NCBI GenBank assembly: GCA_951406725.2
Contig: OX597833.1
Span: 53,444,001-53,508,000, forward strand
Reading direction: 5' to 3'
Source of the DNA: Octopus vulgaris
Lineage: Eukaryota
DNA length: 64,000 nucleotides
Shown: positions 15,613 through 16,219 of the stretch, piece by piece
Layout of the letters: each line of letters opens with the position of its first letter
Position numbering within the stretch: position 1 is the first letter of the stretch
The notes under the pieces: model-generated
Database searches by the model: none
What the model was told of the DNA's origin: nothing
What the model saw: the letters and a program-made list of their open reading frames with translations, nothing else
Program-made: the position numbers and the translations under genes

Positions 15613-16219
15613 GTTGTATACTGTCAATCTAACAAGAACGTGACAGTAGGGGGTACACCACCGTTATATAGCCCTAGGAGGCATCGAACGTCTCCTGACA
15701 GCTTCGACACATTTTATCCTGTGTCCTTATATACACATACGAAGGGGAGACAAACACTCCCAACCGCCGGAACTGCATCTAGGGACACCGTGTTTCAGGA
15801 TCATTGTCCTTCATCGGCCTAGAGTAGCAGACACCGGTCAGCTGGCGATATCTGTCTCGACTTCGTATCTGTATATATCTATAGTCAGTGAAGTCTATTC
15901 ACTGATTATCAAAATAAGAAATATTGAGTTTCTAAATCTCTCGTAGAGAGGTACGGTGGTGGAGCGATATAATGGTTGTATACTTTCAATCTAACAAGAA
16001 CGTGACAGTAGGGGGTACACCACCGTTATATAGCCCTAGGAGGCATTGAACGCCTCCTGACAGCTTCGACAGCTGTCAGGAGGCGTTCGATGCCTCCTAG
16101 GGCTATATAACGGTGGTGTACCCCCTACTGTCACGTTCTTGTTAGATTGACAGTATACAACCATTATATCGCTCCACCACCGTACACCTCTCTACGAGAG
16201 ATTTAGAAACTCAATATTT

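Follow-up and report, generated by a model that had tools for sequence, protein, structure and literature searches.

A C4-core hammerhead in an intron of Octopus vulgaris belongs to a probable 364-nt variant non-LTR retrozyme with a two-end insertion footprint

The type I hammerhead on the minus strand at 15778..15823 of the window, by which we mean the whole stretch of 64,000 nucleotides of Octopus vulgaris DNA analysed here (contig OX597833.1, positions 53,444,001 to 53,508,000 of the forward strand), is very probably the ribozyme of a 364-nt non-coding repeat whose multimers are predicted to self-cleave, and which was presumably copied by a Penelope reverse transcriptase (RT) into a (TA)n stretch of an intron, in an orientation given by chance. 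As in non-LTR retrozymes, the unit is non-coding and lies within ~170-400 nt, holds one type I hammerhead, occurs in tandem and is predicted to form a self-paired circle. A cytosine at core position 4 (C4) and a footprint with two fixed ends set the family apart as a variant of this class.

Read on the minus strand from 15823 to 15778, the minimal part of the hammerhead consists of stem I (6 bp), the core CCGAUGA, stem II (4 bp, loop CAAUGA), GAA, ACACGGUGU, C17 and the second strand of stem I, with C4 at 15816 and a GUC site. C17 lies at 15784, so that the predicted cut falls between 15784 and 15783. The original prediction had named this minus-strand motif and its cut, and both could be read in the sequence; a strict descriptor recovered the motif, and searching both strands of 20 dinucleotide-shuffled versions of the window gave 0 such matches. 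The type I core set is present except for U4, where C is a described tolerated variant. The ribozyme had also been called fully paired, which our analysis contradicts: helix III cannot exceed 3 bp, closed by a CGG loop, because a fourth pair would leave a loop of 1 nt, and an extension of helix I had been overlooked. The extended hammerhead occupies 15759..15845 (minus strand) and adds about 14 pairs to helix I past a UAC/U bulge, about 20 bp in total including the bulge. This bulge is a candidate for the loop 1 partner in a loop 1-loop 2 contact, and both the bulge and the CAANGA loop are conserved in the aligned family copies; we take them to resemble the Schistosoma motif. Rfam returned no hammerhead match, either at the gathering score or at E up to 10, for this or the other hammerhead motifs of the window, and its MIR5387 match reflects the long hairpin only.

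The isolated monomer is predicted to misfold. RNAfold pairs C3-C4-G5 with the CGG loop at a probability of 0.99, and for this reason the A15.1-U16.1 pair reaches only 0.0001. The minimum-energy fold lacks helix III, and the hammerhead fold lies 5.4 kcal/mol above the minimum, compared with 3.2 kcal/mol for a natural U4 copy. For a strand-swapped dimer whose helix III is continuous the score is -76.7 vs -74.0 for two misfolded monomers, while the lowest energy of two unconstrained strands (-79.6) belongs to a different fold and not to a double hammerhead; all these are nearest-neighbour energies that leave tertiary contacts aside. Cleavage as a dimer is thus likelier, and metazoan hammerheads that have a weak palindromic helix III and cleave as dimers have been described (PMC4209133). 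In an alignment of 14 family copies down to 79% identity, 94.2% of the cells in 27 pairs are paired. Changes on both sides occur in 4 of the 27 pairs, a number reached by 4 of 500 shuffles and one that relatedness inflates; these compensatory changes fall in helices I and II, those of stem I and stem II coming from one relative (L268). Conservation and covariation across the family support the earlier suggestion of a potentially active ribozyme, one that would work most likely in dimeric form and in the RNA of the repeat itself rather than in that of the host.

The repeat around the motif is young and abundant. Three exact patterns matched 167, 239 and 588 times in the genome and the controls 0 times, so that the family has at least 588 hammerhead copies. 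Over the 181 bases round the motif, copies are 97-100% identical and lie on most chromosomes (48 matches from the best 40 of 1,072 candidates scored with the 181-base query). Tandem dimers and trimers are found elsewhere at a spacing of 364-365 with a hammerhead per unit, the longest among the matches listed having 3 units, and the window copy has one hammerhead. The longest frame on the ribozyme (sense) strand has 39 codons. The predicted fold of the circular unit has -135.5 kcal/mol (z -8.8 against 100 shuffles) with 64% of its bases paired. The small non-coding unit with its single type I hammerhead corresponds to metazoan non-LTR retrozymes (PMC7229834; the mussel 350-390-bp repeats; 10.64898/2026.07.22.740005), as do the tandem and monomeric copies, the strongly self-paired predicted circle and the molluscan host. 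The G+C content, 45.3%, lies just beyond the <45% described for retrozymes. Unit-length circles have been shown for mussel and coral retrozymes, whereas the octopus repeat is known here from DNA; it further differs in carrying C4 family-wide and in that most copies are short insertions of two arms whose two fixed ends lie in (TA)n, a pattern that we did not find described for retrozymes in the available parts of these sources. Cervera and de la Pena 2020 (PMC7229834) do not mention Octopus or cephalopods in their main text.

At this locus the insertion has two arms. Arm 1 (15605..16071, minus strand) spans about 1.3 units, with unit positions 115-364 followed by 1-219; it passes the cleavage site without a break and ends 3' in (TA)n at a fixed point that we call A. 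Arm 2 (16066..16224, plus strand) is inverted, comprises unit positions 117-274 without the hammerhead, and ends 3' in (TA)n at a second fixed point, B, with a 55-nt tail beyond A. The target was a (TA)n microsatellite, which now occupies 14854..15609 on the left and 16222..16271 on the right. Together the arms form a near-perfect hairpin (15914..16224; arms of ~153 bp, 96.8% self-complementary), which can form on either strand and therefore also in the host pre-mRNA.

The window copy is an ordinary member of its family. Among 66 loci, 16 duplicates were dropped by hand, leaving 50 distinct insertions. The two-armed insertions combine A and B in 31 of 37 cases; of all 50, 9 show only A, 4 only B and 6 have an irregular end, with no A+A or B+B, and 64 of 80 classed ends abut TA repeats. 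The ribozyme lies on both strands in 18 of the 50. Long arms are over-represented in this set, because the loci were chosen by similarity to the ribozyme, and the lower variation of the hammerhead (0.9% vs 2.9% in the rest of the unit) was left unused as biased by that same choice. A composite locus, L244, has both arms ending at A, the single exception to A+B that we saw, and carries an internally deleted ORF1 element between them.

The C4 core is the norm of the family. Exact patterns found 239 C4 vs 5 U4 copies, and among the first 100 listed of the 588 matches to the wider pattern there were 96 C4, 4 U4 and no A or G; the U4 copies would fit decay of the CG dinucleotide. An unrelated family, that of the 16370 motif, has at least 5,694 matches, with 86 C4, 12 U4 and 2 A4 among the first 100 listed. 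As C4 is the norm of both families, it is common in this genome. Our searches of the hammerhead literature showed no report of C4 as a family consensus, and Lunse et al. 2017, on Penelope-associated variants, as well as the retrozyme supplements may hold cases. Separately, L276 carries another C4 motif at ~2970-3070 on the element's strand (core CCGACGA, 3-bp stem II, 37-bp perfect stem I), lying between TA repeats. The idea that C4 arose to lock the CGG loop was rejected, since C4 likewise occurs in a sister subfamily of 165 copies, in which helix III is perfectly palindromic and the second G of the CGG loop absent, and in a 79% relative with another loop.

C4 might also be the mark of a dead ribozyme, in a repeat that spreads as uncut multimers and keeps its fold only for recognition. 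U4C is described to lower in vitro activity considerably (PMC3088659), the monomer is predicted to be locked, the arms traverse the cut site intact, and a 2,200-copy family of this genome spreads with U replacing A6. Nevertheless, we consider this unlikely: the remaining core positions, the GUC site and the UAC/U and CAANGA loops are kept together with C4 over 21% divergence with compensatory stem changes, position 4 is C or U only among the 100 listed copies, and a viroid variant with U4C stayed infectious (Ambros and Flores 1998, as cited in PMC3088659). The viroid case shows the same core change to be compatible with function in vivo, although it concerns a sequence variant, whereas in octopus C4 is the fixed state of genomic families with hundreds to thousands of copies.

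The window holds further hammerhead-like motifs. A relaxed descriptor gave 9 matches, all on the minus strand, with cores at 7395, 11688, 15817, 16400, 18465, 28406, 43937, 47705 and 61843, and 0 intact-core matches in 20 shuffles; the match at 28406 looks like chance, and fuzzy searching revealed one further, decayed copy at 40131 on the plus strand. The motif at 16366..16404 (minus strand), for which C4 had correctly been claimed, is a minimal Penelope-type hammerhead of a separate element with the core CCGACGA and an extra A after A9. Another separate element has a minimal hammerhead-like motif at 11656..11693 (minus strand) with the core CUGUCGA, in a family of at least 2,200 copies, and a second copy at 18433..18470 (minus strand). 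U at position 6 is the norm of this family (98 of the first 100 copies listed), and as it replaces A6, the 11656 and 18433 motifs are not canonical hammerheads. Motifs of the CUGUCGA family are also seen at 7395 and 47705. The minimal hammerheads of Penelope elements (PLEs) described in PMC4209133 fit the 16370, 11656 and 18433 motifs, with palindromic ACGU and an unpaired nucleotide after A9 (at 16400, 11688 and 18465). They are unlike the 15778 motif, which has a long helix I and no unpaired nucleotide between A9 and 10.1. Besides, a type I hammerhead-like motif at 43872-43941 (minus strand) of the window combines a long helix II with a palindromic helix III, and a near copy of its flank lies at ~43600-43660. 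At 61700-63990 there is a relative of the 16370 element and, following it, a run of ~23 units of 93 bp, in all of which part of the hammerhead region is present. A further array, at 50900-52890, consists of ~12 nearly identical 163-bp units.

The host gene lies on the plus strand and is SAM/protease-like, and the motif sits antisense in its intron 11211-21506, which has GT/AG ends, in agreement with the position first proposed. The exon 5' of the intron (11049..11210), the exon with an aspartyl-protease-like stretch (21507..21683) and the last coding exon (25419..25976), all on the plus strand, are identical to P0001, a protein named Octopus vulgaris SAM-domain protein by its source. Pfam finds in the host protein a SAM domain and an aspartyl-protease match that scores under the curated cut-off. 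The SAM exon lies 2.4-2.6 kb 5' of base 1, so that the gene starts outside the window and the motif at 7395 is intronic as well. A plus-strand stretch at 8263-8520 equals the annotated N-terminus of the O. sinensis model P0002 and is missing from P0001; it may be an alternative exon or a mis-annotation.

That the motifs of the gene span at 11656, 15778, 16370 and 18433 are all antisense was correctly observed, but two of them have non-canonical cores, as described above, and the one at 7395 makes a fifth. It had been proposed that antisense placement spares the host pre-mRNA from cleavage and could reflect selection, and a test of orientation bias was suggested. Such a test inside 49 genes (1.55 Mb) gave 16 sense and 19 antisense core-covering copies (p = 0.74), an antisense share of about 38-70% at 95% (calculated by hand), and, for canonical cores, 10 sense and 8 antisense. 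By family the sense:antisense counts were 3:7, 3:3, 8:8, 1:1 and 1:0. Gene spans were taken from collinear exon matches of PF00063, PF00225 and PF00520 (myosin, kinesin and ion-channel genes), and 1,552,459 bases (the largest genes in part, with any nested genes left in) were searched with 13 natural hammerhead-bearing segments as queries. Three singleton seeds (2 sense, 1 antisense) and two further descriptor matches (1 sense, 1 antisense) were left out, and two antisense matches that passed only in a smaller set would give 16:21. An early antisense lean of two GAGC families (3 sense, 8 antisense) did not become significant in the larger count. As the 49 genes held no copy of the 364-nt family and mostly weak minimal motifs, the count only weakens the case for a family-specific bias.

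Purging of sense intronic copies through ribozyme activity in pre-mRNA, with antisense survivors, accordingly appears quite improbable, although it has points in its favour. All 5 motifs in this gene are antisense (the discovery set; two-sided 1 in 16), one minimal family leans 3:7, splicing is blocked by fast but not by slow intronic ribozymes (Fong 2009, as cited in PMC10919898), and Xenopus introns are depleted of retrozymes (Li, Clavereau and Pollet 2026, 10.64898/2026.07.22.740005). The balanced counts in the 49 genes stand against it, as does an intact C4 copy of the 16370 family in sense orientation in a myosin gene (L109), and so do the 18 of 50 family insertions with the ribozyme on both strands. 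Moreover, 3 of the 4 motifs beyond the gene share the minus strand, a tendency on which the original prediction had itself remarked. Flank composition is weak evidence either way: on the sense strand of octopus introns (L067-L226) T exceeds A, with a mean skew of +0.035 and positive values in 72% of 611 pieces of 2.4 kb, so that antisense intronic copies should score below zero on the ribozyme strand. In 32 single-strand loci of the family the mean was +0.007 +/- 0.009, with 19 signs in the antisense (negative) direction and 13 positive (p = 0.38). Strand calling by k-mers was correct for only 42-47 of 60. Among the matches listed in our literature search there was no intron orientation test of hammerheads, nor did the available part of 10.64898/2026.07.22.740005 contain an orientation analysis. 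Slow intronic ribozymes that spare splicing would explain the absent bias, and our results suggest that most repeat hammerheads of octopus are too slow or too dimer-dependent to harm it. The antisense intronic copy thus needs no special explanation, consistent with the chance orientation that we favour.

The insertion anatomy connects the repeat with Penelope elements. PLE traits include tandem or inverted arms with a tail and a (TA)n bias (PMC8557442), and in vitro the PLE PAc of Anolis uses two RT start sites, nicks and extends both strands, and does not need hammerhead cleavage for insertion (PMC11167929). The octopus repeat shares the partial tandem, the inverted 5'-truncated copy and the tail at one end with the PLEs described in these sources, as well as the microsatellite target and, presumably, two reverse-transcription start sites, its tail measuring 55 nt vs 30-40 bp described for PLEs. 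It differs in having an extended rather than minimal hammerhead and no RT/GIY-YIG ORF: in 66 loci neither the unit nor any joined sequence contained a telomerase-like RT + GIY-YIG ORF as expected of an autonomous PLE. In the genome, GIY-YIG scored 148 matches, many in 781-aa frames, one of which carries RT + GIY-YIG, and in the 8 of the 148 loci compared no sequence similarity to the unit was found. L278 and many 781-aa frames represent an RT-GIY-YIG family that is young and apparently intact and has a cysteine motif preceding the endonuclease, and the descriptor found no hammerhead downstream of frames of this type. A short plus-strand frame at 12100-12270 of the window resembles a fragment of a Penelope-type ORF by eye, with no Pfam support. 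L061 was rejected as an autonomous partner, its insert being of ORF1 type with a weak zinc-knuckle match and no RT. That the unit is merely the pseudo-LTR of an autonomous Penelope element, all copies being 5'-truncated ends of that element, would suit the PLE-like anatomy and the occurrence of hammerheads in PLE pLTRs (PMC4209133), but it is very improbable, as arms longer than one unit run on into the same unit and not into an ORF, no RT-GIY-YIG frame is joined to the unit (frames >150 aa, 66 loci, by eye), the only long insert found is an ORF1-type element, and the hammerhead is of the extended canonical and not the minimal PLE type.

This ORF1-only element inserts into the repeat at unit position 337 (ATATC), which in the window copy is an empty target site at 15847..15851 (minus strand). 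It has a 450-aa frame, often intact, with a weak zinc knuckle, and resembles ZCCHC3/CCHC RNA-binding proteins in Atlas; among 7,993 candidate proteins of 249-793 aa, a search with ORF1 detected nothing related. The 3' end of the element abuts unit position 337, 28 nt before stem I, in 17 of the 25 best loci, and in 3 more it abuts another copy arranged in tandem. The majority of inserts have full length and no ORF2 and lie within ordinary two-armed insertions; in L061 (2790-6302) two opposed ribozymes 3.8 kb apart enclose two 1.75-kb elements. Such loci comprise L061 and L227-L269, and the more distant copies L270 and L271 use another target. The 5' side of the target repeat is frequently unlike the 3' side and hardly varies among members of a subfamily, and may therefore travel with the element. 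In 11 composites, ORF and flank distances were uncorrelated (Mantel r 0.05, p 0.38; r 0.10, p 0.28), the rearranged L253, L254 and L263 having been left out, which favours independent site-specific insertion, possibly by a LINE-type enzyme in trans. The element is presumably comparable to HAL1 and Tx1. Replication of retrozyme and ORF1 as a single coding circle was not supported, given this lack of correlation and the mostly full-length inserts despite the short arms.

Returning to the retrozyme reading, we infer a cycle in which transcription of a tandem copy yields a multimeric RNA, which is cut to unit length, probably as double hammerheads, and then ligated to a circle. A Penelope protein would then nick both strands of a (TA)n stretch and prime at two RNA sites 55 nt apart, which would yield the back-to-back arms. 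Because the arms run through the cleavage site, the template would be a circle or an uncut multimer. With one hammerhead, the window copy would not release a unit by itself, nor would it be transcribed as a ribozyme from the host promoter, and its likeliest effect on the host would be a 150-bp double-stranded hairpin in the intron. We also entertain a more speculative reading, rather doubtful as a whole, in which the C4 core and the self-complementary helix III act as a switch: the circle would stay locked while multimers are cut as double hammerheads, the circle would be read by Penelope from both nicked strands at two fixed sites, and an ORF1-only LINE derivative would target the stretch upstream of the ribozyme, making a parasite chain of three levels. 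The lock by pairing of C3-C4-G5 with the CGG loop applies to the subfamily of the window copy.

The family offers a natural test of U4C tolerance in hundreds of copies, in which the U4 copies and the sister copies with a palindromic helix III can serve as controls. In addition, we regard the pairing of ends A and B in the arms as the genomic counterpart of the two Penelope start sites seen in vitro, which supports the mobilisation of animal retrozymes by Penelope elements.
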